NCBI GenBank assembly: GCA_041666865.1
Contig: JBAYGD010000006.1
Location: 20,390-84,389, forward strand
Source: Candidatus Omnitrophota bacterium
GTDB lineage: Bacteria > Omnitrophota > Omnitrophia > Omnitrophales > Aquincolibacteriaceae
Direction: 5' to 3'
DNA: 64,000 bases
A program made the position numbers and the translations under genes. Below the pieces are notes generated by a model that saw nothing but the letters and a program-made list of their open reading frames with translations, was not told the origin of the DNA and searched no databases. Of this stretch, positions 5,860 through 64,000 are shown piece after piece (the stretch's first letter is position 1; every line of letters starts with the position of its first letter).

Positions 5860-6263
5860 ACCCGCAATCCGGCTTCACGCTGATCGAGCTGATGCTTGTC
5901 GTGATCATTATCGGCGCCCTGGTGGCGATGGTCCTCCCTCGCCTTGCGGGCCGCTCCGAACAGGCGAGGGTGCAGGCTGCTCAGGCGGATATCCGCTCGA
6001 ACATCGCCACGGCCTTGAAGCTTTACGAACTCGATAACGGGTCCTTTCCGCCCTCGGGGGAGGGGCTGAACGCGCTTTTCACGAAATCAGGGAACGCGCG
6101 AAACTGGAACGGGCCGTATTTGGAGAAAAGGCCGCTGGATCCCTGGGGCCACGACTATAAATACGACAGCCCGGGAACGCACCGCCCCGGGGATTACGAC
6201 CTGTCGTCGGCAGGCAAAGACGGGGCCGCCGGCACGACCGATGATATTACCAATTGGGATTAA
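5829..6263 (+). CDS. gspG: Major pseudopilin GspG (type II secretion)
   Basis: Track ORF 5736..6263 starts at TTG; trimmed to the ATG giving METVHFKRTVNPQSG/FTLIELMLVVIIIGAL (prepilin cleavage motif with Glu+5). GspG C-terminal signature NGPYLEK...PLDPWGHDYKY...DYDLSSAGKDG. Confidence 0.85.
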   Translation: METVHFKRTVNPQSGFTLIELMLVVIIIGALVAMVLPRLAGRSEQARVQAAQADIRSNIATALKLYELDNGSFPPSGEGLNALFTKSGNARNWNGPYLEKRPLDPWGHDYKYDSPGTHRPGDYDLSSAGKDGAAGTTDDITNWD

Positions 6264-6652: not shown

Positions 6653-7252
6653 ATGCGCCGCTCCCGAGGGTTCACGCTGATCGAAGTGCTCCTCGTGGTT
6701 TCCCTGGCCGCGCTCATTGGCATGGCCGTCTACTCGATGTTCGCGAGCGCGGTCAATATGATGCACCGGATCAGCGATAATGCGCTGGACGAAGACGCGG
6801 ATATCTTCTTCGAAAAGGTGGACCGTGAGATTTCCTGCCAGGTTGTTTTTAAGGGGATTCCCTTCGAAGGGACGGCATCTTCCATGAGTTTCGCGGCCCC
6901 GATTGCTTTGAATCCGGAGAATCCCGCGGAGCGCGGAGTCGGACGAGTCCGGTACGATTTTGGGGGCTCGTCCCAGGGGTTCGTGAGGCGCCAGCAGAAC
7001 CTTCATCAGGTGTTCAAGACGATTGAGGGCGCGCCGGCGTCCCTGATGACAGCGGCAACGAGTCTTCGGTTTCAGTACTTTGTGTACCGGGAAAAGGACC
7101 AGCTCTACGAGTGGACGGAAGAGTGGAACTCTGCGGAGCAGGACGGACAACTGCCGGCCGCGGTCAGGCTCAAGCTCGAGTGTGCACGGGGAGAGGAGGC
7201 CAAAAAGTATGAGCGGACGATTGCTATCCCGATTGCGGGATCCACGCGGTAG
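6653..7252 (+). CDS. Minor pseudopilin, GspJ-like
   Basis: MRRSRG/FTLIEVLLVVSLAAL prepilin leader. 199 aa, the size typical for GspJ. Confidence 0.7.
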   Translation: MRRSRGFTLIEVLLVVSLAALIGMAVYSMFASAVNMMHRISDNALDEDADIFFEKVDREISCQVVFKGIPFEGTASSMSFAAPIALNPENPAERGVGRVRYDFGGSSQGFVRRQQNLHQVFKTIEGAPASLMTAATSLRFQYFVYREKDQLYEWTEEWNSAEQDGQLPAAVRLKLECARGEEAKKYERTIAIPIAGSTR

Positions 7253-22597: not shown

Positions 22598-23713
22598 ATG
22601 AATGTTCAAGGTGTCCCGACACGTACCATTTGGCTCAAAAAGAAGGATCCCCGCGTGGTTCAGATAATCGATCAGCGCGCCCTTCCGCACCGCTTTGTCG
22701 TCGAAGACTTGAAGACCCTGGGCGACTGCTGCCGCGCCATCAAGGATATGCACCTTCGCGGGGCGCCGCTCATCGGCGTTGCCGCCGCCTACGGAATGTA
22801 TTTGGCTGCTCTCGACTCGCCCAAGGGCCTCGCGCCGGCGGCGTGGCGGGCCTGGATGCGAAAAGCGGGCGCCCGGTTGACGGAGACGCGCCCGACGGCG
22901 GTCAATTTGCGGATCGGAGTCGAGCGGGTCCTGGCCGAGATTTTGAAAATCGGCTCCCCAAGCCATGGAATTGAGGCCGCATGCGCCGCCGCTCGGTCGC
23001 TCGAGGCTGAAGAGATTGAAAATTGCCGCAGAATCGGCGAGCACGGCCTTACGGTCATCGAAAAAATCCATCGCGGAAAAAAGGGGCGGCCCGTCCAGAT
23101 TTTGACGCACTGCAACGCCGGCTGGCTTGCCTGTGTCGACTGGGGCACCGCGACCGCTCCGATGTACGCCGCTTTCAACAAAAAAATTCCGGTCCATGTG
23201 TGGGTCGACGAGACCCGGCCGCGCAATCAGGGTGCAAGCCTCACGGCGTGGGAGCTCGGTCAGCACGGCGTTCCCTACACGGTCATCGTGGACAATGCCG
23301 GCGGGCACCTGATGCAACACGGTTTAGTGGATCTTGTGATCGTCGGCTCTGACCGGACCACCGCCTCGGGGGACGTTGCCAACAAGATCGGGACCTATTT
23401 GAAAGCACTTGCCGCCAAAGACAACGGCGTTCCTTTTTATGCCGCGCTTCCTTCCACCACCATTGACTGGGACATGGACGACGGGGTCCGCGAAATTCCA
23501 ATCGAGGAGCGTGAATCGGAAGAAGTGACTCAGATTCAGGGCCTGGACGGCGGTGTGATCCGCAAGGTCCTTCTGACCCCAAAGGGCGCAAGGGCCGCCA
23601 ATTACGGTTTTGATGTGACGCCACGCCGGCTTGTGACGGGCATCATCACGGAGCGCGGGATTGCACGAGCGTCACGGGCGGGATTGCGAAAACTTTTTCC
23701 GAAAAAACAATAG
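22598..23713 (+). CDS. mtnA: Methylthioribose-1-phosphate isomerase (eIF-2B-like family)
   Basis: Track ORF trimmed to MNVQGVPTRTIWL (RBS AAGGAG). IDQRALPHRF, MHLRGAPLIGVAAAYG and VGSDRTTASGDVANKIGTY motifs. Confidence 0.75.
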   Translation: MNVQGVPTRTIWLKKKDPRVVQIIDQRALPHRFVVEDLKTLGDCCRAIKDMHLRGAPLIGVAAAYGMYLAALDSPKGLAPAAWRAWMRKAGARLTETRPTAVNLRIGVERVLAEILKIGSPSHGIEAACAAARSLEAEEIENCRRIGEHGLTVIEKIHRGKKGRPVQILTHCNAGWLACVDWGTATAPMYAAFNKKIPVHVWVDETRPRNQGASLTAWELGQHGVPYTVIVDNAGGHLMQHGLVDLVIVGSDRTTASGDVANKIGTYLKALAAKDNGVPFYAALPSTTIDWDMDDGVREIPIEERESEEVTQIQGLDGGVIRKVLLTPKGARAANYGFDVTPRRLVTGIITERGIARASRAGLRKLFPKKQ

Positions 23714-23740
23714 TTGTTCAGTCTCCACCGGTGGCATTGG

Positions 23741-23870
23741 GTCGACAAAGAAAGGTTTCTCCAAAACGCGCCTGCTTCGCTCGGAGCTCATGGACCTCAT
23801 GGGTTGTGCGCCGATCTCCTCGTCTTCGCAAGCGGCGCTAATTGTTTTTCCGAAACCTTTCTTCGTCTCC
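23741..23870 (+). repeat. Intergenic repeat element, copy 1 (~125-130 bp, terminal inverted repeats GAAAGGTTTC/GAAACCTTTC)
   Basis: About 92% identical to 57122..57260. Both copies lie on the + strand in 3' intergenic spacers. Confidence 0.75.
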
Positions 23871-23921
23871 TCAACCTTCCTCACCGGGGGTATCTGAACG
23901 TTTACAAAAACACATCTGTCA

Positions 23922-24473
23922 TTGAAAGAAATGAAAAATTTAACCTCTGTAGTTCTCCACACTGCTTTTGAACGAGCTCGCACTTACCGCCTTCCGGTTT
24001 TGATGACGTCGACAACCGGAAAGACGGCGAAGGCGATGTTGGATATCGTCAAGGATGCCCCCGTTCGCCTCATCGTGTTGACCCATGACCCAAGGAGAGT
24101 CGGCCCTCAAACAGCCTTTGACTTGGAAGTCAGGCAACGCCTTTTGGCAGGAGGGCATACTTTTCTGGAAGACGAAGCTCCATGGCTGCCTTCGATTACT
24201 ATAAGTCGTTTGCTTGAAATGGCTTTCAATTTATCAAGCCTCACGCCTCAGCAGCGTTTATGGACAAGAAAATACGGGATTGGCGGCAAGGTGTGTTTCC
24301 TTATGACACACAAAGTTATAAAAGCTGGATTACTCCGGACAGGTGAAAGTTGCGTTTGTCTCGGGGGAAGCCGTTCCGGCTGTGATACGGCGCTTCAAAT
24401 GAGGGTTTCTTGTCGAGGAAACCGGCTTTTTCCCGAGGTCGAATCGGTGCTTGTGAGCGCCCTAAAAAAATAA
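23922..24473 (+). CDS. Hypothetical protein (weak resemblance to pyruvate-kinase C-terminal alpha/beta domain)
   Basis: 183-aa ORF in a locally low-GC segment. LPVLMTSTTGKTAKAMLDIVKDAPVRLIVLTHDPRRVG pattern. No confident family assignment. Confidence 0.35.
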   Translation: MKEMKNLTSVVLHTAFERARTYRLPVLMTSTTGKTAKAMLDIVKDAPVRLIVLTHDPRRVGPQTAFDLEVRQRLLAGGHTFLEDEAPWLPSITISRLLEMAFNLSSLTPQQRLWTRKYGIGGKVCFLMTHKVIKAGLLRTGESCVCLGGSRSGCDTALQMRVSCRGNRLFPEVESVLVSALKK

Positions 24474-24572: not shown

Positions 24573-24645
24573 GCTGGAGTAGCTCAGTTGGTAGAGCACG
24601 TCCTTGGTAAGGACGAGGTCACGGGTTCAAGCCCCGTCTCCAGCT
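24573..24645 (+). tRNA. tRNA-Thr (anticodon GGT)
   Basis: 73-nt cloverleaf folded by hand. Acceptor GCTGGAG/CTCCAGC. Anticodon loop TTGGTAA. T-arm GGGTTCAAGCCCC. Confidence 0.85.
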
Positions 24646-26150: not shown

Positions 26151-26225
26151 AGGCCTGTAGCTCGAACTGGCTAGAGCGGCGGTCTCCAAAACCGCATGTT
26201 GCAGGTTCGAATCCTGCCAGGCCTG
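26151..26225 (+). tRNA. tRNA-Trp (anticodon CCA)
   Basis: 75-nt cloverleaf. Acceptor AGGCCTG/CAGGCCT. Anticodon loop CTCCAAA. T-loop TTCGAAT. Confidence 0.85.
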
Positions 26226-55301: not shown

Positions 55302-55895
55302 ATGAGACATTCCAGACACGGAAGAAAATTGGGAGTGAAGTCCAAGCACCGCAAGGCGCTCATGCGGAACCTGTTGAAGAACATGGTGCGCTACAAGAAG
55401 ATCCGCACCACCGTGACGCGCGCCAAAGAGGCGAGAGTGTTCATCGATAAGATGGTTCACCTCGCAAAGCGCTCAGACCTGCATGCCCGTCGGCTATTGA
55501 TTTCGGAAATCGGGTGCCCGGAGACCGTTTCGGTCCTGATACGTGAAATCGCCCCGCATTTCAAAAAGCGTAACGGCGGGTACACACGGGTCCTGAAGCT
55601 CGGGACCTCCCGCGCCGGCGATGCCGCGGAGATTGCGCTCCTTGAGTTTACGGAACTGATCGAGCTGCCCAAGAAAAAAGAAAAAAAGCCCAAGAAGGCG
55701 AAAGAAGCCCCCAAAGCCGAAGAGACGAATGAGCCGGCCAAGAAGAAAAAGGAAGCGCCGGAAAAAACGAAGGGGGAAGAGCCTAAAAAGGGCGAGGCGA
55801 AGGGCGAAGAAAAGCCTAAGGCGGAAAAAGAGGAGGCCGAGAAAAAGGGCGGCTTCCTGAGTAAGCTGAGAAAATTCCTCAAAGGCGATGAGTAA
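55302..55895 (+). CDS. rplQ: 50S ribosomal protein L17 (Lys/Glu-rich C-terminal extension)
   Basis: L17 core of ~120 aa plus a ~75-aa KE-rich tail. Confidence 0.93.
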   Translation: MRHSRHGRKLGVKSKHRKALMRNLLKNMVRYKKIRTTVTRAKEARVFIDKMVHLAKRSDLHARRLLISEIGCPETVSVLIREIAPHFKKRNGGYTRVLKLGTSRAGDAAEIALLEFTELIELPKKKEKKPKKAKEAPKAEETNEPAKKKKEAPEKTKGEEPKKGEAKGEEKPKAEKEEAEKKGGFLSKLRKFLKGDE

Positions 55896-57075
55896 CGCGT
55901 CCACATTCGAACTCTCCAGGAAGGTGCTTGCCGTGGCGCCTTCGGCCACGCTGGCGATAGCCGCCAAGGCCAAGGAATTGGTCGCGCAGGGAAAGAAAGT
56001 CGTTTCCCTGAGCGCGGGAGAGCCGGATTGTGACACTCCCTCCTATATCAAGGAGGCCGCGATCGCCGCCCTGCAAAAGGGCATGACCAAATATACGCCG
56101 GTCAGCGGCACGATCGAGCTGCGCAAGGCGATCGTCGCCAAATTTCAGCGCGACCAGAACCTCACTTTTTCTCCCGAGCAGATCATTGTAAGCTGCGGTG
56201 CCAAGCACTCCATTTTCAACGTGCTGTTCGCGCTTTTGAACGAGGGCGACGAAGTGGCGATTCCGTCGCCCTTTTGGCTCAGTTACCCCGAGATGGTGAC
56301 GGTGCTCGGCGGGAAGAGCGTTTTTATCGAGACCTCGGAGGCGTCCGGGTTCAAGATGAGCCCGCAGGACCTGGAAAAGGGGCTGACGCAAAAAACGAAG
56401 GTCCTCATCCTCAATTCGCCTTCGAATCCTACCGGGGGCGTCTATTCCCGGGAAGAGCTTCTCAAGCTCGTCGAGGTCCTCAAGCGCTTCCCGAAGGTCA
56501 TCATCCTTAGCGACGAGATTTACGAGAAGCTCGTTTTTGACGGCCAAAAGCACTATTCGATCGCGTCCCTCGATCCGTCGATCGCGTCGAGGACGGTGAT
56601 CGTCAACGGACACAGCAAGGCCTACGCGATGACGGGCTGGCGCCTTGGATACGCGGCTTGCCCGGATAAGGGGCTCGCCAACGCGGTTTCGAGCATTCAG
56701 AGCCACTCGACCTCCAACCCCACCTCTTTCGCGCAAGCGGGCGGCGTGACGGCCCTCGAGCAAGGGGAGGCGGATGCGGTGAAGCTATGCGCGGTCTTCG
56801 AAAAGCGGCGCAATATTTTCTGCGAAAAGCTGGCGTCCATTCCCCAATTAGTCCCGGTAAAACCCGGCGGCGCGTTCTATGTCTTCGTGAATTCGAGCCG
56901 CTCGGGCATCGACTCGGTCCGGCTCTCGGAGCGCCTGCTTGACGAAGCTCTGGTAGCGGTCGTTCCGGGCAAGCCCTTCGGAAGCGATTCCCACATCCGC
57001 ATGAGTTTCGCGACCTCCCAGGAACAGCTCGACGAAGCGGTCCGCCGCCTCGCCGATTGGTTCGCGAAGCTTTAA
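55888..57075 (+). CDS. Class I/II PLP-dependent aminotransferase (aspartate aminotransferase-like)
   Basis: SNPTG motif and the PLP-Lys context NGHSKAYAMTGWRLGY. Confidence 0.85.
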   Translation: MSNASTFELSRKVLAVAPSATLAIAAKAKELVAQGKKVVSLSAGEPDCDTPSYIKEAAIAALQKGMTKYTPVSGTIELRKAIVAKFQRDQNLTFSPEQIIVSCGAKHSIFNVLFALLNEGDEVAIPSPFWLSYPEMVTVLGGKSVFIETSEASGFKMSPQDLEKGLTQKTKVLILNSPSNPTGGVYSREELLKLVEVLKRFPKVIILSDEIYEKLVFDGQKHYSIASLDPSIASRTVIVNGHSKAYAMTGWRLGYAACPDKGLANAVSSIQSHSTSNPTSFAQAGGVTALEQGEADAVKLCAVFEKRRNIFCEKLASIPQLVPVKPGGAFYVFVNSSRSGIDSVRLSERLLDEALVAVVPGKPFGSDSHIRMSFATSQEQLDEAVRRLADWFAKL

Positions 57076-57121
57076 TCTTTCCGCGTTTCTCCCATCCACG
57101 GGTGCATTCCACTTCATACAC

Positions 57122-57260
57122 TTGATATCCAGTCGGCAAAGAAAGGTTTCTCCAAAACGCGCCAGCTTCGCTCGGAGCTCTTGGACCTCACGGGTCTTTT
57201 GCCGATCTCCTCGTCTCCGCAAGCGGCGCTGATTGTTTTTCCGAAACCTTTCCTTGCCTC
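57122..57260 (+). repeat. Intergenic repeat element, copy 2
   Basis: About 92% identical to 23741..23870, with the same terminal inverted repeats. Confidence 0.75.
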
Positions 57261-57270
57261 CGTTTCTCCA

Positions 57271-57350
57271 GGGGCCATTTCCTAAACGTACAGGCCTTTT
57301 TTTGTTTGCCCCTTATCTATTGAGCAAGGCCTGTACCTGTAGGAAATGGC
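57271..57350. other. Long imperfect hairpin (~24-bp arms GGGCCATTTCCTAAACGTACAGGCC / GGCCTGTACCTGTAGGAAATGGCCC, ~30-nt T-rich loop)
   Basis: Read directly. The right arm contains the ATG annotated as the mfd-like start. Confidence 0.5.
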
Positions 57351-59292
57351 CCCATTGTTTTCGTTGCCTGTTTCAGCTAACATAACTTCCATGTTTGAAA
57401 AGGTGCGGCGGATCAAAACCGGAACGGTCATGGAGCGCGAGAGCCTTGCCGAGCTCCTGAGGGGCTTTCGCTACGAAAAACGGGAGGCGGTATCGCGCCC
57501 CGGCGAATTCGCGTCGCGCGGGAACATCGTCGATATTTATCCGGTCACTTACCGCACGCCCGTACGGCTCGAATTCGAAGGGGACACGCTGGCCTCCATC
57601 CGTGATTTTTCGCCCGCCGACGGGAAATCCCTGGCTTCTTTCGACGAAGTCTTCCTGATTCCGGTTACGCCTGCTTTCGCGCGTAAGGCCGGACGCCTTC
57701 AGGCGGAACTCGAGTCCTTCGAGCCCCTGACCGAACTGCGAGATCTCCTGCCTGGTGATTTTGTCGTTCACCTCAAGTACGGGATCGGGAAATTCCTCGG
57801 CACCAAGAATCTCCAAACTCAGGGCGAGCGCAAGCGCCATCTGGCGATCGAATACGCAAACCAGGAGATCCTCTACCTCGAAATCCACGAACCCCTCGAG
57901 CGCTACATCGGGGGAGAGGGGCGCGCCCCCAAGCTGAGCAAACTGCACGGCAAAGAGTGGGAGAGGGTGAAGGAGAAGACTCGCCGCGCGATTTCGGGCA
58001 TGGCCCACGAACTCCTCGAGATTCAGGCGAAGCGCAGCTTCGGTAAGGGCTACGCCTTTCCGGCCGACAACGACTGGCAGAGGCAGTTCGAAGCGCAATT
58101 TCCATTCGAGGAGACGCCCGACCAGGAGAAAGCGGTCGAAGAGGTCAAGCGGGACATGGAGTCTCCCAAGGCCATGGACCGCCTTTTGGCCGGAGACGTC
58201 GGCTACGGCAAGACGGAAGTCGCTATGCGGGCAGCATTTAAGGCGGTTATGGGCGGCCGGCAGGTCGCGATTCTTGTCCCGACGACCGTTCTTGCGGAGC
58301 AGCATTATCTGGTTTTGAAAAAACGCCTGAAAGATTTTCCAGTCACCGTCGAGGTCCTGTCTCGCTTCCGTAGCCAAAAGGAACAGTCCGGCATCGTCCA
58401 GTCTCTCAAAAAGGGGACCACCGACATTTTGATCGGGACCCACCGGTTGCTCTCGAGCGATCTTGTTTTCAAGAACCTTGGCCTCGTCATCATCGACGAG
58501 GAGCAGCGATTCGGCGTGCAGCATAAAGAACGGCTCAAACACTACCGGACGTTTATCGACGTCCTTGCCCTCACGGCGACCCCGATTCCGAGGACCCTTT
58601 ACATGTCGCTTGTGGGAGTTCGCGATATGTCGGCCATCAATACGCCTCCGGCCAACAGGATGCCTGTCGACACGACCGTGACCGAATATGACGACCGGAT
58701 TGTCCGGCGGGCGTTTGATCTCGAACTCAGCCGGGAAGGGCAGATTTACTTTGTCCACAACCGGGTCCAGTCGATCGAAAAAGTCCACGAACACCTGAGT
58801 GAGCTTCTGCCCAAGGTGAGGTTCGGGGTCGCACACGGGCAAATGGGGGCGCACGAGCTCGAAGCCGTCATGCAGGCTTTCCTCGAGCGGAAGATCGACT
58901 GCCTGATCGCGACGAATATTATCGAGGCGGGTCTCGACATTCCGAACGTCAACACCATCATCGTCAACCGCGCCGACCTCTTCGGCCTTGCCGATCTCTA
59001 CCAGCTCCGGGGCCGGGTGGGTCGGTTCCCGGACCGCCGCCAAGCCTATGCCTATTTTATGGTGCCCAAGAACTGGGTCATGACCCAGGATGCCACCAAG
59101 CGTCTGGACGCCATCGAGCGCTTCACCGAGTTGGGTTCCGGATTCAAAATTGCCTTGGAAGACCTGGAGATCCGCGGAGCGGGGAATCTGCTTGGGACGG
59201 AACAGAGCGGATTCATCCATGCTGTCGGATTCGACCTCTATTGCCGTATGCTCCGTCAGACCCTCGAAGAAATGAAAAAGAGTAAAAAATAG
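57346..59292 (+). CDS. mfd: Compact Mfd-like transcription-repair coupling factor (UvrB-homology D2 fragment, RNAP-interacting domain, SF2 translocase; lacks canonical N-terminal D1a/D1b/D3 and C-terminal D7)
   Basis: GEFASRGNIVDIYP (UvrB-like). DFVVHLKYGIGKF...LSKLHGKEWERVK (RID). GDVGYGKTEVAMRA, DEEQRFGV and QLRGRVGR helicase motifs. 648 aa versus ~1150 for canonical Mfd. Start codon uncertain (57346 or 57391). Confidence 0.7.
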   Translation: MAPLFSLPVSANITSMFEKVRRIKTGTVMERESLAELLRGFRYEKREAVSRPGEFASRGNIVDIYPVTYRTPVRLEFEGDTLASIRDFSPADGKSLASFDEVFLIPVTPAFARKAGRLQAELESFEPLTELRDLLPGDFVVHLKYGIGKFLGTKNLQTQGERKRHLAIEYANQEILYLEIHEPLERYIGGEGRAPKLSKLHGKEWERVKEKTRRAISGMAHELLEIQAKRSFGKGYAFPADNDWQRQFEAQFPFEETPDQEKAVEEVKRDMESPKAMDRLLAGDVGYGKTEVAMRAAFKAVMGGRQVAILVPTTVLAEQHYLVLKKRLKDFPVTVEVLSRFRSQKEQSGIVQSLKKGTTDILIGTHRLLSSDLVFKNLGLVIIDEEQRFGVQHKERLKHYRTFIDVLALTATPIPRTLYMSLVGVRDMSAINTPPANRMPVDTTVTEYDDRIVRRAFDLELSREGQIYFVHNRVQSIEKVHEHLSELLPKVRFGVAHGQMGAHELEAVMQAFLERKIDCLIATNIIEAGLDIPNVNTIIVNRADLFGLADLYQLRGRVGRFPDRRQAYAYFMVPKNWVMTQDATKRLDAIERFTELGSGFKIALEDLEIRGAGNLLGTEQSGFIHAVGFDLYCRMLRQTLEEMKKSKK

Positions 59293-59499: not shown

Positions 59500-62400
59500 A
59501 TGATCCATCGTAGAGTCCTTCGAATCGTATCCCTCTTGGTGACCGTCTCCTTTCTGGTGACAGATTTCACCCTGCCCGTTGGTCTTGCAGCAGACGAACT
59601 GGGGCCTGTTGCCGCTCAGAAAACGCCGACTGTGCTTTCGGATGATCTTGCCGCAGTTGCGATTCCATCCTCGATCGGAAAAATTCAGGAATTTTGGCAG
59701 GGGACAAGCGGCGATACCGTGGTTCTGGTCCAGGACGCGCATGCGATCCCTGCAGCTCAGCGCAGCATCAAGGCCTTGATCGAGCATTTCCAAAAGACCT
59801 ACGGCCTGAGTTTTGTCGGTCTCGAGGGCGCAGCATCGGAGCTCGATCCCCTGATTTTTAGGAGTTTTCCGGATCGGGAGATCCTGCGTAAAACTTTCGA
59901 CGAATATTTCGACCGGGGAGAGCTGACCGGCCCTGTGGCGGCAGCGGTGCTCGGAAATGAAGCTTTGGAATTCCAGGGCATTGAGGACTGGGACACGTAC
60001 GAACAGGGATTGGCCCTGTATTTAGCCGCCGCTAAAAAACAGCCGGAAATTGCCGCCCAATTGCTCGCCCTCGGCAAGGATCTCGAAGCGCGTAAGGATA
60101 TGATTTTCTCACCCGAACTTCGCGAAATCGATCGCCTGCTCGCTGCTTTCAACAACAATAGCAAGGGCCTCCTCGAAGTCCTCAAGAAGCTTGCCGCGGT
60201 GAAACCTCCGGAGCCGGGCACTGAACTTGCAATCCTCCTCGAAGAAAGCTCCCGGTTGGGCCGGGAGCAGCCGTCACTTGAGATGGAAGTGAAAAGCGTG
60301 TCCAGAGAAGTGGAAAAACAGCTGACGGACCCCAGCGATGTTAAGGCTTACCAGCAGAAATTCCAGGAGTTTCAGACGTCCGGAATCACTCCGCAGGAGT
60401 TCATGCTTTTCCTGAAAGAACTGGCCGCAGGCAGGGGGTGGCCGGTCCGTATTTCCGAAGGCCTGGCCGAGGCCGTGGGGAAACAGAAAAAGATGCGTGA
60501 TATTCAGGGGACCCATTTTTTTACCGACTTTGAAGTCTATGCCTCTTCGGTCAAAGCAGCGCTTTTCAGGACCGACGACGAGCGGAAGCTCGATGAGCGG
60601 AGCCGCCTGCTCGGTCTCCTCGGCAGGTTCACGAAGCTGGAGCTCAACCAGGAGGATTGGCGGGAAATCAAGGACACGTCGGACTCCATTTTTAGTCCAT
60701 TCATGCCAGGACCGGAATTGCCGGCTCTTTTTTTCTACCACTTTGCTTTCTACCGGAACGCCGAGCAGCGCGACGAGGCATTCATCCGGAACCTCTTTGA
60801 AGGGATGAGAACGAGAGGCGAACATTCGGCGCTTGCCGTTTCGGGCGGATTCCACACGGAAGGACTCGTCCGGCTACTCAAAGAGCGAAAGATCTCCTAT
60901 GTGCTCGCCATGCCTGCTATTTCGGAAATCCCCGGCCAGACGACTTACACCGAACAAATGCGCGGGAATGTTTCGTGGAAGGATTACTTTGAAGTCGAAA
61001 ACGGAAAGGTGAATCTCTACAAGGCTTTTGTCCGCGCCCTTCGGGACAACCTGATTGCCCATAGTCCTGAAAGATCTGTTTTGCTCAAAGAATGGCGAGA
61101 CCAAATCCTCCGTGACCTTGCGGCCTCAGGAAAGACGGTTGATGCCGAGCGATACGCTTCTTTCCTGGACGAAATTTCTGTTCGGGCGAATCATGATTCG
61201 CTCCAACGGCGCCTGACGGATGCCTACGCAAAAATCGACCGGTTCATCGACGGCTTGATGCGTCTTGAGTCCGAAGGCAACCTGGACCCCCAACACGTCA
61301 TGCAACTCGTCCGGCCTGCCACGATCGGTGCCGGAGTCAGCAACGGATCCAATCTTGCTCCTGGGGCGATGGCTTCCGTCGAGGTCCGCTTGCCCGACGA
61401 CACTATAGTTCGAATGTTTCCCGAGGTCATTGGCGAGGATGCCGATGCGCAAAGTGCGACCGCCCGGGGCGAGATAAGGACCGTAGAATCCGGGGTGAGA
61501 GTGCCCCAAGAAATCTTCGATCCCTTGACTGCCTTCGGAGAACCCTCCGTCCGTGTGCCTTCTTCAAGAGAGTTGTCGCGCGTGATGATGTCAGCCTATG
61601 CTTTAGCGCAACCGGAAATCGATGTTGATCAAAGCCAACTTATGGCCCGCGGGTCATCCGTTCTTCCAAAAGGACTTTTACTCATTTATCCGACTGCGAC
61701 ACCTATGAGCGAAGACATCCTTTTTGAAATTCTCGATCGGGCGTTACGCTCTGGTTATGCTCCAACGGATATCAGGATCTACAGCGGGGAAGCCATCCGT
61801 GCCCAAGACATACTCAAGCGACACTACTCGAAGATCTGGAGCGCAGCCAACGATGGGTTCGGGGCCTTGGCGGCAGATGCGCAAGAGGCCATCAGAACTT
61901 TATACCGGGGCATTCTGCCGGCCTCCTTCGGCGTGGTGTATGACGACAAGTTAGTTTTTCCGGTCAGCGTTTTGGAGGATTGGGGACTGAACGAGGCTGA
62001 GATTGAACGGATGGCGGTCGAAGCGGAGCGAAACTACGGGGCGCCGGAAGGGCTTCAAAAAATTAACAGCGATGTCTTTTCCGTCGCCGTGAAGCTCCCC
62101 GATTCAGGAAAGGTGCCGGGCAGTCTAAGAGGAAAACCGGTTATCTTGCTCAACGTTTTTTATCCGCGGCTAAAGAATGATTTCGAAAACCCTTCTGCTA
62201 AGACGATTGCCGTTGTCCTGCAGGCGATTCCGGGGGTTGCACCGGTGGCTTGGCACTCTATGTTGTCGCGCTATCGCGGGGGATCTGACCCCAAGACCGC
62301 GGCGGAAGGCAGTTTGAGGCGGGATGCTTACGATCGTGTCATTCCCGTGACATTCCCGGTAGATGTCCATAACAGTTTTGTCCATCTCAACGATGTGGGA

Positions 62401-64000
62401 GATTTTGAACAGGAAAGCAGTGTCTGGTTCCGCTCGGAACAGAGAAGCGAAGGCCTTAGCGAGCAAGAATATTATGCAGCCTATCAGGCCGCACCGCCGA
62501 CCTTGTCTTACGGCGAGTTCCTGGCGCTTCAAGAGCAATATCGGGCCAGAGCCCTCCATATGAAATCCAGCGTTGTTGCCCGTGACCGGATTGCGGTGCC
62601 TTCAACGCCCGTTGTGCGGCGGGAGGATGTTTCCGAACAGGCTAAGGAAGCCGGCGACAACTCGGTTCGCCGCGGCGAAGTTGAATTGTGGATTTTGGCG
62701 GCCGGGACGGGCGGACGAGCTTTCGGATATAAAATTCCGGAGTCTCAAAGGATCCGGGGCTTGATTCCGATTGCCCGTCTTGCCGGGGGCCTGAGGTCGG
62801 GGTTTGAAATCGCTGCCGCGCATGCGCGCTGGCTGGGCAGGACCGTCGCGGGAGATCCAGGAAGAATTCCGGTCCGTTACTGTACGAGCCGTCTTTCAGA
62901 CGCCGCTATTCGTCGGGCCTTGCAGCGATATTCCCATCCAAACTTGCTTACTTCCGTCACCGGAGACATTCCGCGCCTGCAGCCGTACCGGGAGGATTTG
63001 CAGGCAGAGCCCAAAGTTCCTCCGCATCAGATTGACAGGATTCTCGAAAACAACGGCGGTGCGCCGGGCCAGGTTTTTCGCTTTCAAGATGGCAGCATGA
63101 GTCGCAAACCTTTGGGTGCGCTTGCCGCCTTTGATGCCGCGTTTCTGGACGGCAGTTTGTGGGAAAGTTACCGGAAAGGGGTCCGGTATTTGTGGGTCGG
63201 CAATGACAGCGATTTGGGGATGAGCCTGGATACCGCCTTGCTCGGCCGTTTGATTGAGAGCGGAAAGGAAATGCTCTCGGTGATGGTGGAAAAAGACACG
63301 TATTACAAAATGCAGATCAATGGGGAAGACTCCTGGGTTCAGGTTCGTAACGGACAAGTTTTTCGTCATCATCTCCCGGAGGGATTTGGGGCGGGCTATC
63401 GGCTCGACTCGGGTTTGGAAATCACAAAAGAAGGCATTCCTTTCACACTCCCTTCCGGTCAAATCCAGGTGGTACTGGAAAAAGGAGGCGTGCGGGTCAA
63501 CTTGGAAGGGAAGACGGTCATTCTGGAACCGTCCGAATTGCCGAAGGACTTTCCTCAGGATCAACTGCATGAGTTCAACTCCAATCAAACGATCCTCAGC
63601 TTGGAAGCGCTCTTTGCGGCCTATCAGACCGATCCCCGCGAATATCCGAATCTCAGCTATGCCGAAAAGGAAAAACGCCTTGCGACGTTCCATCAGCAAA
63701 TTCGTCCCCCCTTCATGGAAGTCAAAGAAATCCCCGATCCGTCCGAAAAGACCGGCAGGATGAAATTTGGCATCCAGATGACGCATCCTGTCTGCAGACT
63801 CGCGGGTGTCCTCAGGACCGAATACGTGGCTGTTGACCGTGATGCGCGAAGCACGCCGTCCGGGTACGGGTCCGTCAAGGATTTGAATGCGCAGGACTAT
63901 CAGCAGGTTTTTGAGCGCGCCTTTGGCGGCAAACTCGATTTCGAGGACCCTCAAACCGGCCAAATACAGGAAGATGTTCAGATCCCGCCGGACGCGTTGC
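59500..64000 (+). CDS. Very large secreted or membrane-anchored protein, 3'-truncated by the window (at least 1500 aa), with a UDP-sugar pyrophosphorylase (UDPGP)-like region near residues ~1040-1300
   Basis: Frame 1 reads ATG 59500 to the window end with no stop (translated by hand; an in-frame TGA lies upstream at 59467). Absent from the track, which appears to list only stop-terminated ORFs. N-terminus MIHRRVLRIVSLLVTVSFLVTDFTLPVGLAADE is signal-peptide-like. Motifs ELWILAAGTGGRAFGYKIPE and RYLWVGNDSDLGMSLDTALLGRLIE resemble the UDPGP family. A 355-aa antisense shadow ORF lies at 62896..63963. Confidence 0.7.
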   Translation, partial: MIHRRVLRIVSLLVTVSFLVTDFTLPVGLAADELGPVAAQKTPTVLSDDLAAVAIPSSIGKIQEFWQGTSGDTVVLVQDAHAIPAAQRSIKALIEHFQKTYGLSFVGLEGAASELDPLIFRSFPDREILRKTFDEYFDRGELTGPVAAAVLGNEALEFQGIEDWDTYEQGLALYLAAAKKQPEIAAQLLALGKDLEARKDMIFSPELREIDRLLAAFNNNSKGLLEVLKKLAAVKPPEPGTELAILLEESSRLGREQPSLEMEVKSVSREVEKQLTDPSDVKAYQQKFQEFQTSGITPQEFMLFLKELAAGRGWPVRISEGLAEAVGKQKKMRDIQGTHFFTDFEVYASSVKAALFRTDDERKLDERSRLLGLLGRFTKLELNQEDWREIKDTSDSIFSPFMPGPELPALFFYHFAFYRNAEQRDEAFIRNLFEGMRTRGEHSALAVSGGFHTEGLVRLLKERKISYVLAMPAISEIPGQTTYTEQMRGNVSWKDYFEVENGKVNLYKAFVRALRDNLIAHSPERSVLLKEWRDQILRDLAASGKTVDAERYASFLDEISVRANHDSLQRRLTDAYAKIDRFIDGLMRLESEGNLDPQHVMQLVRPATIGAGVSNGSNLAPGAMASVEVRLPDDTIVRMFPEVIGEDADAQSATARGEIRTVESGVRVPQEIFDPLTAFGEPSVRVPSSRELSRVMMSAYALAQPEIDVDQSQLMARGSSVLPKGLLLIYPTATPMSEDILFEILDRALRSGYAPTDIRIYSGEAIRAQDILKRHYSKIWSAANDGFGALAADAQEAIRTLYRGILPASFGVVYDDKLVFPVSVLEDWGLNEAEIERMAVEAERNYGAPEGLQKINSDVFSVAVKLPDSGKVPGSLRGKPVILLNVFYPRLKNDFENPSAKTIAVVLQAIPGVAPVAWHSMLSRYRGGSDPKTAAEGSLRRDAYDRVIPVTFPVDVHNSFVHLNDVGDFEQESSVWFRSEQRSEGLSEQEYYAAYQAAPPTLSYGEFLALQEQYRARALHMKSSVVARDRIAVPSTPVVRREDVSEQAKEAGDNSVRRGEVELWILAAGTGGRAFGYKIPESQRIRGLIPIARLAGGLRSGFEIAAAHARWLGRTVAGDPGRIPVRYCTSRLSDAAIRRALQRYSHPNLLTSVTGDIPRLQPYREDLQAEPKVPPHQIDRILENNGGAPGQVFRFQDGSMSRKPLGALAAFDAAFLDGSLWESYRKGVRYLWVGNDSDLGMSLDTALLGRLIESGKEMLSVMVEKDTYYKMQINGEDSWVQVRNGQVFRHHLPEGFGAGYRLDSGLEITKEGIPFTLPSGQIQVVLEKGGVRVNLEGKTVILEPSELPKDFPQDQLHEFNSNQTILSLEALFAAYQTDPREYPNLSYAEKEKRLATFHQQIRPPFMEVKEIPDPSEKTGRMKFGIQMTHPVCRLAGVLRTEYVAVDRDARSTPSGYGSVKDLNAQDYQQVFERAFGGKLDFEDPQTGQIQEDVQIPPDAL

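Follow-up and report, generated by a model that had tools for sequence, protein, structure and literature searches.

Prokaryotic MITEs are defined as elements shorter than 500 bp that contain no transposase gene and carry terminal inverted repeats (TIRs) and direct repeats (DRs) (PMC10969869). QMITE2 of Coxiella burnetii is about 150–190 bp long; its full-length copies consist of a palindromic core and outer TIRs, and are flanked by direct repeats of 7–11 nt that are different at every copy. It occurs mainly just after genes or in spacers, in both orientations, and some copies overlap the 3′ ends of genes or sit in frame within ORFs (PMC5896051). Rickettsia palindromic elements (RPEs), of ~150 bp, are found in frame in housekeeping genes, where they contribute an extra peptide in a tolerant loop (PMC10969869). 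The Correia elements of Neisseria and the ERIC/IRU elements of enterobacteria are dispersed imperfect palindromes of 100–200 bp, present in either orientation and co-transcribed with adjoining genes as long hairpins (PMC10969869, PMC3184786). The Chunjie MITE of Geobacter uraniireducens, 178–235 bp long, has conserved TIRs, DRs and dozens of intergenic copies, one inside an operon. Correia elements duplicate TA, not 8 bp.

Here we describe a family of repeats from uncultured Candidatus Omnitrophota which, in our judgement, probably represent a non-autonomous DNA transposon (MITE). Members of this phylum are mostly ultra-small, uncultured bacteria, in which, to our knowledge, no MITE has previously been described; a full-text literature search for MITE together with Omnitrophota returned nothing relevant. 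Two copies lie in the window, that is, the whole 64-kb stretch of DNA analysed. Their architecture appears closest to that of QMITE2, to which we liken it by description, with no shared ancestry implied. Both have a very stable predicted hairpin, but the Omnitrophota element has no GTAG REP motif in its core, belongs to a host of a different phylum and has unrelated arm pairs around the same core. One copy, in priA, resembles RPEs and some of the in-frame QMITE insertions. However, this is the one intragenic copy of 13, whereas nearly half of RPEs are intragenic, and the Omnitrophota element has clear 8-bp target duplications and neither a conserved element-encoded peptide frame nor frequent in-frame insertion. 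Chunjie is likewise similar by description, although its termini are conserved across copies while those of the Omnitrophota element are variable. The same contrast applies to the Correia and ERIC/IRU elements, in which the TIRs are the best conserved part and not, as here, the least conserved; plasmid and phage collections and Rfam yielded no sequence similarity to either. The copies are single and scattered, unlike integron attC sites or gene cassettes, which form arrays beside an integrase.

Anatomy of the two window copies

In a blastn search of the first copy (copy A) against the window, positions 57132–57252 matched with 91.7% identity over 121 bp (E 3e-42), and a gap-free comparison of copies A and B gives 90% identity over 130 bp. 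The window contains exactly two copies, with cores at 23741–23870 and 57132–57261. Both are on the + strand and have the start and end motifs quoted in the original prediction; the window has two occurrences of each motif (26 nt on the left, 20 nt on the right), and shuffled sequences have none. The predicted start of the second copy at 57122 is 10 nt too early, as homology begins at 57132.

The ends of the 130-bp core are inverted repeats with arms of 24–31 nt. The original prediction had taken these inverse-complementary ends for the termini of an element of ~125 bp. The complementarity is confirmed, but it forms an internal stem: that length covers only the core, and complementary outer arms, with 8-bp direct repeats outside them, extend the whole unit to ~196 bp. 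The mutual complementarity of the arms allows a single long, imperfect hairpin to form on either strand. The features of the two loci are as follows.

22598..23713, + strand: mtnA, 371 aa; protein identical to P0004 (Candidatus Omnitrophota MAG, NCBI)
23702..23709, no strand: target-site duplication on the left of copy A, AAAAAACA, immediately beyond the outer arms; matches CAAAAACA at 7 of 8 positions
23710..23740, + strand: left outer arm of copy A, subfamily 1 terminus ATAGTTGTTCAG...; pairs with 23871–23904
23741..23870, + strand: conserved core hairpin of copy A, 130 bp; the segment of the original prediction
23871..23904, + strand: right outer arm of copy A, ...CTGAACGTTTA; pairs with the left outer arm
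23905..23912, no strand: right target-site duplication of copy A, CAAAAACA; matches AAAAAACA at 7 of 8 positions
23931..24473, + strand: 180-aa gene, next after mtnA (gene calls on L173, L169, L175 and the P0007 contig; alignment)
55888..57075, + strand: aminotransferase gene upstream of copy B (PF00155); stop codon 25 nt before the element
57084..57092, no strand, with partner at 57261–57269: exact 9-bp direct repeat CGTTTCTCC bracketing copy B
57100..57131, + strand: left outer arm of copy B, subfamily 2 terminus GGGTGCATTCCACTTCATACA...; homologous to L084 and the two L158 copies
57132..57261, + strand: core of copy B, 130 bp, without right outer arm; locus identical in L168 and L001
57391..59292, + strand: Mfd/TRCF-like helicase gene downstream of copy B (gene call, Pfam hits on L001)

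Copy A thus spans 23710–23904 (195 bp), and its left arm is homologous to the arms of the copies at L108, L167, L060 and L085. Copy B spans 57100–57261; it has the left outer arm and no right outer arm, and is therefore a truncated copy. The 9-bp repeat around it encloses 7 nt, the left arm and the core. Roughly 0.03 such 9-bp matches are expected per copy by chance, and this repeat may be one of them. Directly 3′ of copy B, upstream of the mfd-like gene, lies a second long hairpin (57271–57353; arms of about 28 nt, 93% complementary, loop of about 27 nt), which is unrelated to the element and single-copy in all sequence examined.

The aminotransferase adjoining copy B is encoded identically on the 122,380-bp ENA metagenome contig ERZ27249449 k141_1160274. 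The home strain also occurs in Logan run SRR6484324 and, as L168, in JGI sample 3300037810, where 6.3 kb are 99.94% identical. Two Logan contigs of this strain both end within the invariant left part of the core, L002 at 2132 and L174 at 4178, inside the invariant AAAGAAAGGTTTCTCCAAAACG of copies B and A, respectively; these ends are repeat-induced assembly breaks, as a de Bruijn assembler makes at repeats. As for the surroundings, tRNA-Thr(GGT) (24573–24645) and tRNA-Trp(CCA) (26151–26225) flank tuf, and this region is followed by secE-nusG-rplK..rpoBC and later by a ribosomal protein operon. The context of tuf, rpoBC and the ribosomal operon places both window copies among the core genes whose neighbourhood is the most conserved in the genome. 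Elsewhere in the window, adjoining ORFs (5871–5902 and 6668–6699) both carry a GFTLIELM-type N-terminal motif, typical of prepilin/pseudopilin signal sequences, and a giant gene running from 59500–64000 onward (L001 13613–21188), 4129 aa as called, has Pfam matches to pyruvate kinase and Lysine_decarbox domains.

Family members and their insertion sites

At least 13 distinct copies were found at unrelated loci in at least two organisms, with core identities of 82–97%. Three belong to the home organism, a Candidatus Omnitrophota MAG: window copies A and B, and a third (L167) that lies after kdsA-kpsF and was reached via a peptide search with the open frame of the element. Among the matches listed, the JGI metagenome Ga0172379 contributes at least 10 copies on at least eight large contigs; the nearest named PriA homologs of the organism concerned also come from Omnitrophota. 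These copies were taken from the matches listed in an 18-mer scan of metagenome contigs, which reached at least 118 loci, and among those listed only the Ga0172379 contigs were genuine. Many human-gut matches, as well as L083, L117, L163 and the contig-end match L151, had just an 18–22-mer in common with the element and were rejected.

In a scan of 185,579 species-representative genomes with a strict two-arm pattern (GAAAGGTTTC-N77-107-GAAACCTTTC), no copy was detected. The pattern gave 33 matches in scattered taxa, none of which had interior homology, so we regard them as chance matches. Viral contigs, searched with three patterns, gave nothing beyond chance single matches, and plasmid and phage collections contained no match to the element.

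The DNA common to the window and the other copy loci is the element alone. The two window copies might have reflected a segmental duplication, with two copies only and a duplicated gene context. Instead, there are 13 copies whose flanks are all unrelated to one another, which rules this explanation out.

Direct repeats of 8 bp lie directly outside the outer arms and have a different sequence at every locus. In addition to copy A (AAAAAACA/CAAAAACA, 7/8), they were recognised at the following copies.

L108: CCCTAATC, exact
L084: TCGGCGCT, exact
L133: TCATGCCG, exact
L158, two copies: NTGTCGAT and NAGTCGAC, 7/8 each
L104: CGTGRAAC, 7/8

An 8-mer pair with at most one mismatch thus flanks 7 of the 13 copies, compared to 2 of 156 (1.3%) cross-copy controls, in which the upstream flank of one copy was paired with the downstream flank of another. 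The other six copies have no recognisable target duplication. At L133, the exact duplication (1958–1965 and 2162–2169) includes the stop codon of uvrB (minus strand), which places this insertion exactly at the end of the gene.

The duplications bear directly on whether the family could be a REP/REPIN-type palindrome spread by RAYT (IS200/IS605-like Y1) via a single-stranded hairpin intermediate. REP/REPIN sequences are extragenic repeats that form hairpins and, like the Omnitrophota element, retain complementarity; the long hairpin of the latter, with co-varying arms, would suit such a route, as would the fact that outer-arm complementarity seems to matter and arm sequence does not. However, RAYT/IS200-type movement leaves no target duplication, which is at odds with the 8-bp repeats at seven copies. 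The GTAG/CTAC motif is absent from the core consensus, the 196-bp unit exceeds the size of REP doublets, and no RAYT gene was noticed in passing in the DNA examined. The presence of target duplications and the absence of GTAG set the element apart from REP/REPIN sequences, and we consider spread by RAYT extremely unlikely.

Related genomes contain sites without the element. In three relatives whose MtnA is 72–77% identical, a comparison between species rather than within one population, the site after mtnA is empty. The spacer between mtnA and the 180-aa gene is 38, 58 or −4 nt in these relatives and ~217 nt in the window, where it holds the element. In one relative, 21 kb are collinear with the window and the element is absent.

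Relative to their flanking genes, identified by Pfam, five copies have the same orientation, five the opposite orientation, and three lie between divergent or convergent genes. Seven copies are 0–25 nt from a stop codon. The neighbours are housekeeping genes on separate contigs (mtnA, rplQ-aminotransferase, serS, recA, hisF/hisI, uvrB and priA). The original prediction had assigned the copies to 3′ intergenic spacers; the location at gene 3′ ends is borne out, but copy A is not purely intergenic, since the mtnA stop codon lies inside it.

In fact, the mtnA stop codon TAG (23711–23713) is within the left terminus of copy A, and the last codon is likewise derived from the element. Removal of copy A and one duplication yields ...CCGAAAAAACACATCTGTCATTGA (reconstructed empty site ...CCGAAAAAACA|CATCTGTCATTGA...), in which mtnA ends ...KKHICH*, 5 nt before the next ATG. 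The reconstruction indicates that the element replaced the last four codons of mtnA by Q-stop. A second gene is altered at L085, where the copy lies in opposite orientation and in frame inside an uninterrupted priA reading frame. Residues 164–232 of this PriA fragment have 10 counterpart residues in Klebsiella PriA (4nl4), and the closest PriA homologs (72–73% identity) lack ~60 residues exactly at the insert. The insert falls in a linker that precedes the C-terminal domain and varies in length.

Coding capacity and RNA structure

Most copies have one minus-strand frame that is open across the core, and priA runs through its insert in this frame. Public annotation places hypothetical proteins of 54–69 aa on three copies (P0001, 69 aa; P0002, 55 aa; P0003, 54 aa), and mechanically called ORFs run through the element at 23672–23983 (−) and 57114–57278 (−) of the window and also at L108 and L167. 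The open frame and the annotated proteins would be expected if the copies were small protein genes or relics of a duplicated gene. Against this, indels disrupt the frame in 4 of the 13 copies: L133 and L104 have one of +2 nt, L055 and L157 one of −1 nt. These indels break every frame, leaving no reading frame conserved across the 13 copies, and no start or ribosome-binding context is shared among them. Peptide searches matched 3 proteins of 5.8 billion and 2 cluster representatives of 1.84 billion, and all except one of the matches were ORFs called on the element itself. P0001, P0002 and P0003 are very likely artefacts that annotation produced from the repeat.

Besides the element ORFs, the peptide searches, combined with translation of every copy in six frames, yielded a weak match to the repetitive P0244. 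This 4536-aa predicted protein consists of dozens of 40–58-aa repeats (VQIGPIGAE..KKNFSLTIFF..SSERARRALYAHIFFDQIGPI) that are about 38% identical to the element-encoded peptide. Because no single stretch exceeds a score of about 30 bits, the total is inflated by repetition; P0244 probably stems from an ORF called across an array of a different palindromic DNA repeat. The frameshifted copies effectively refute a protein gene, for which we see practically no chance, and agree with the non-coding character originally proposed for the element.

The core hairpin comprises 37 pairs, of which 97.9% are paired across the 13 copies, and on both strands the core folds with a z of about −4.6 relative to shuffles. 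Compensatory double changes were found at four core pairs compared to 0.7 expected, and 1 of 500 shuffles reached four. These changes show the hairpin to be maintained. In 11 of 12 copies, one of the two strands gives the better fold, as A–C mismatches become G–U on it.

The strength of the fold, the compensatory pairs, the strand difference and a core conservation far above that of the flanking arms could all be accounted for if the copies were structured small RNA genes or cis-regulatory RNA hairpins kept for a function at the RNA level, a possibility raised in the original prediction. Palindromic DNA elements are, however, equally expected to show hairpin-preserving changes. In addition, the copies occur in both orientations with respect to transcription, one lies in priA and one over the mtnA stop codon, target duplications flank them, and syntenic sites of relatives are empty. 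Rfam gave no match at 23650–23950 even at E up to 10, the window matches at the gathering threshold being the two tRNAs only, and promoter- or terminator-like motifs were absent from both window copies and the sequence adjoining them. Given the mixed orientation and the evidence for mobility, the maintained hairpin does not point to an RNA gene, and we judge an RNA family to be very unlikely.

The conserved core and the variable ends

Full copies are 195–197 bp long, with a left arm of ~32 nt and a right arm of 34–38 nt. The outer arms are complementary in every full copy and the stem runs on into the core. Two kinds of terminus, GTAACCGTTCAG... and GGGGTGCATCCCACTTCATACA..., were found. Subfamily 1 comprises window copy A, L108, L167, L060 and L085 and has the ends GTAACCRTTCAG...CTGAACGGTTAC; subfamily 2 comprises window copy B, L084 and both L158 copies and has the ends GGGGTGCATCCCACTTCATACA...TGTATGAAGTGGGATGCACCC, with L133 and L104 forming variant 2b. 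In L055 and L157, the complementary flanks are different, shorter and idiosyncratic, and an 8-bp duplication is absent. Members of one subfamily have 94% identity in the core compared to 74–86% in the arms. Subfamilies 1 and 2 have 90% identity in the core and unrelated arms. Arm lengths are nonetheless near-equal in the unrelated subfamilies (32/38, 32/37 and 33/34). Arms and target duplications are 3–4 times more diverged than the core, and the decay of the target duplications is about equal to that of the arms.

This combination of a conserved core and variable termini inverts the pattern usual for MITEs. The contrast may reflect recombinational swapping of termini, or gene conversion that homogenises the core. 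It could also arise from a nested origin, in which a young mobile 130-bp core inserts at the apex of older palindromic elements or hairpins, such that the outer arms and the 8-bp duplications would belong to older, unrelated small MITEs. A core common to subfamilies that do not share their arms fits this scheme, as do the greater divergence of arms and duplications and the short flanks of L055 and L157. Perfect duplications, present in only 3 of the 13 copies, likewise fit the age of the arms and not that of the core. The closest parallels are IS1397/ISKpn1 and IS1111, which target REP-like palindromes. A precedent for such targeting is provided by the palindromic QMITE2 of Coxiella, which is a target of IS1111 (PMC5896051). 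On the other hand, no core-less arms turned up in profile searches of roughly 150–190 kb of lineage DNA, the core/arm junctions show no duplication, and the near-identical arm lengths would have to be a coincidence. We therefore consider a nested origin unlikely.

Altogether, a non-autonomous MITE is the explanation that we favor, in line with the dispersed, non-coding MITE/REP-like element of the original prediction. The copies are within the size range of prokaryotic MITEs, contain no transposase gene, have TIRs and differing DRs, and are dispersed over 13 unrelated loci, with empty sites in relatives and frame-breaking indels. The element encodes nothing and would depend for its movement on a transposase, presumably of the DDE type, that acts in trans from a gene elsewhere in the genome. 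Staggered cuts of 8 bp at the target would give rise to the 8-bp direct repeats of variable sequence. Insertion would occur without a fixed orientation, in the short intergenic spacers of the compact genome, often 0–25 nt from a stop codon, and occasionally in tolerant parts of coding sequences. In the window and the copy loci examined, we found neither an autonomous transposase partner with matching ends nor either terminus elsewhere, as in an IS with the same ends.

We also entertain the idea that the mobilising machinery or the host recognises the 130-bp core, with the ends then set by distance and not by terminal sequence, ~32 nt away on one side and 34–38 nt on the other. Such a ruler would explain both the equal-length, unrelated arm pairs around one core and why the arms need complementarity only, although we hold it to be quite unlikely.

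The element is a new family of an ordinary, known kind. Its practical effects are broken short-read assemblies and the spurious hypothetical proteins P0001–P0003 in public annotation. It has also changed real genes: mtnA has acquired a new C-terminus and stop codon, PriA has gained ~60 aa, and the formerly tight pair of mtnA and its downstream gene is now parted by a 195-nt hairpin. We infer that the expression of adjoining genes could be affected as well. In an otherwise ordinary selfish repeat, the conserved core with swappable termini poses a modest puzzle on how such elements are recognised and evolve. If recognition of the core with a ruler were true, the family would represent a structure- and ruler-defined transposon end, or a functional core module captured repeatedly by different termini.
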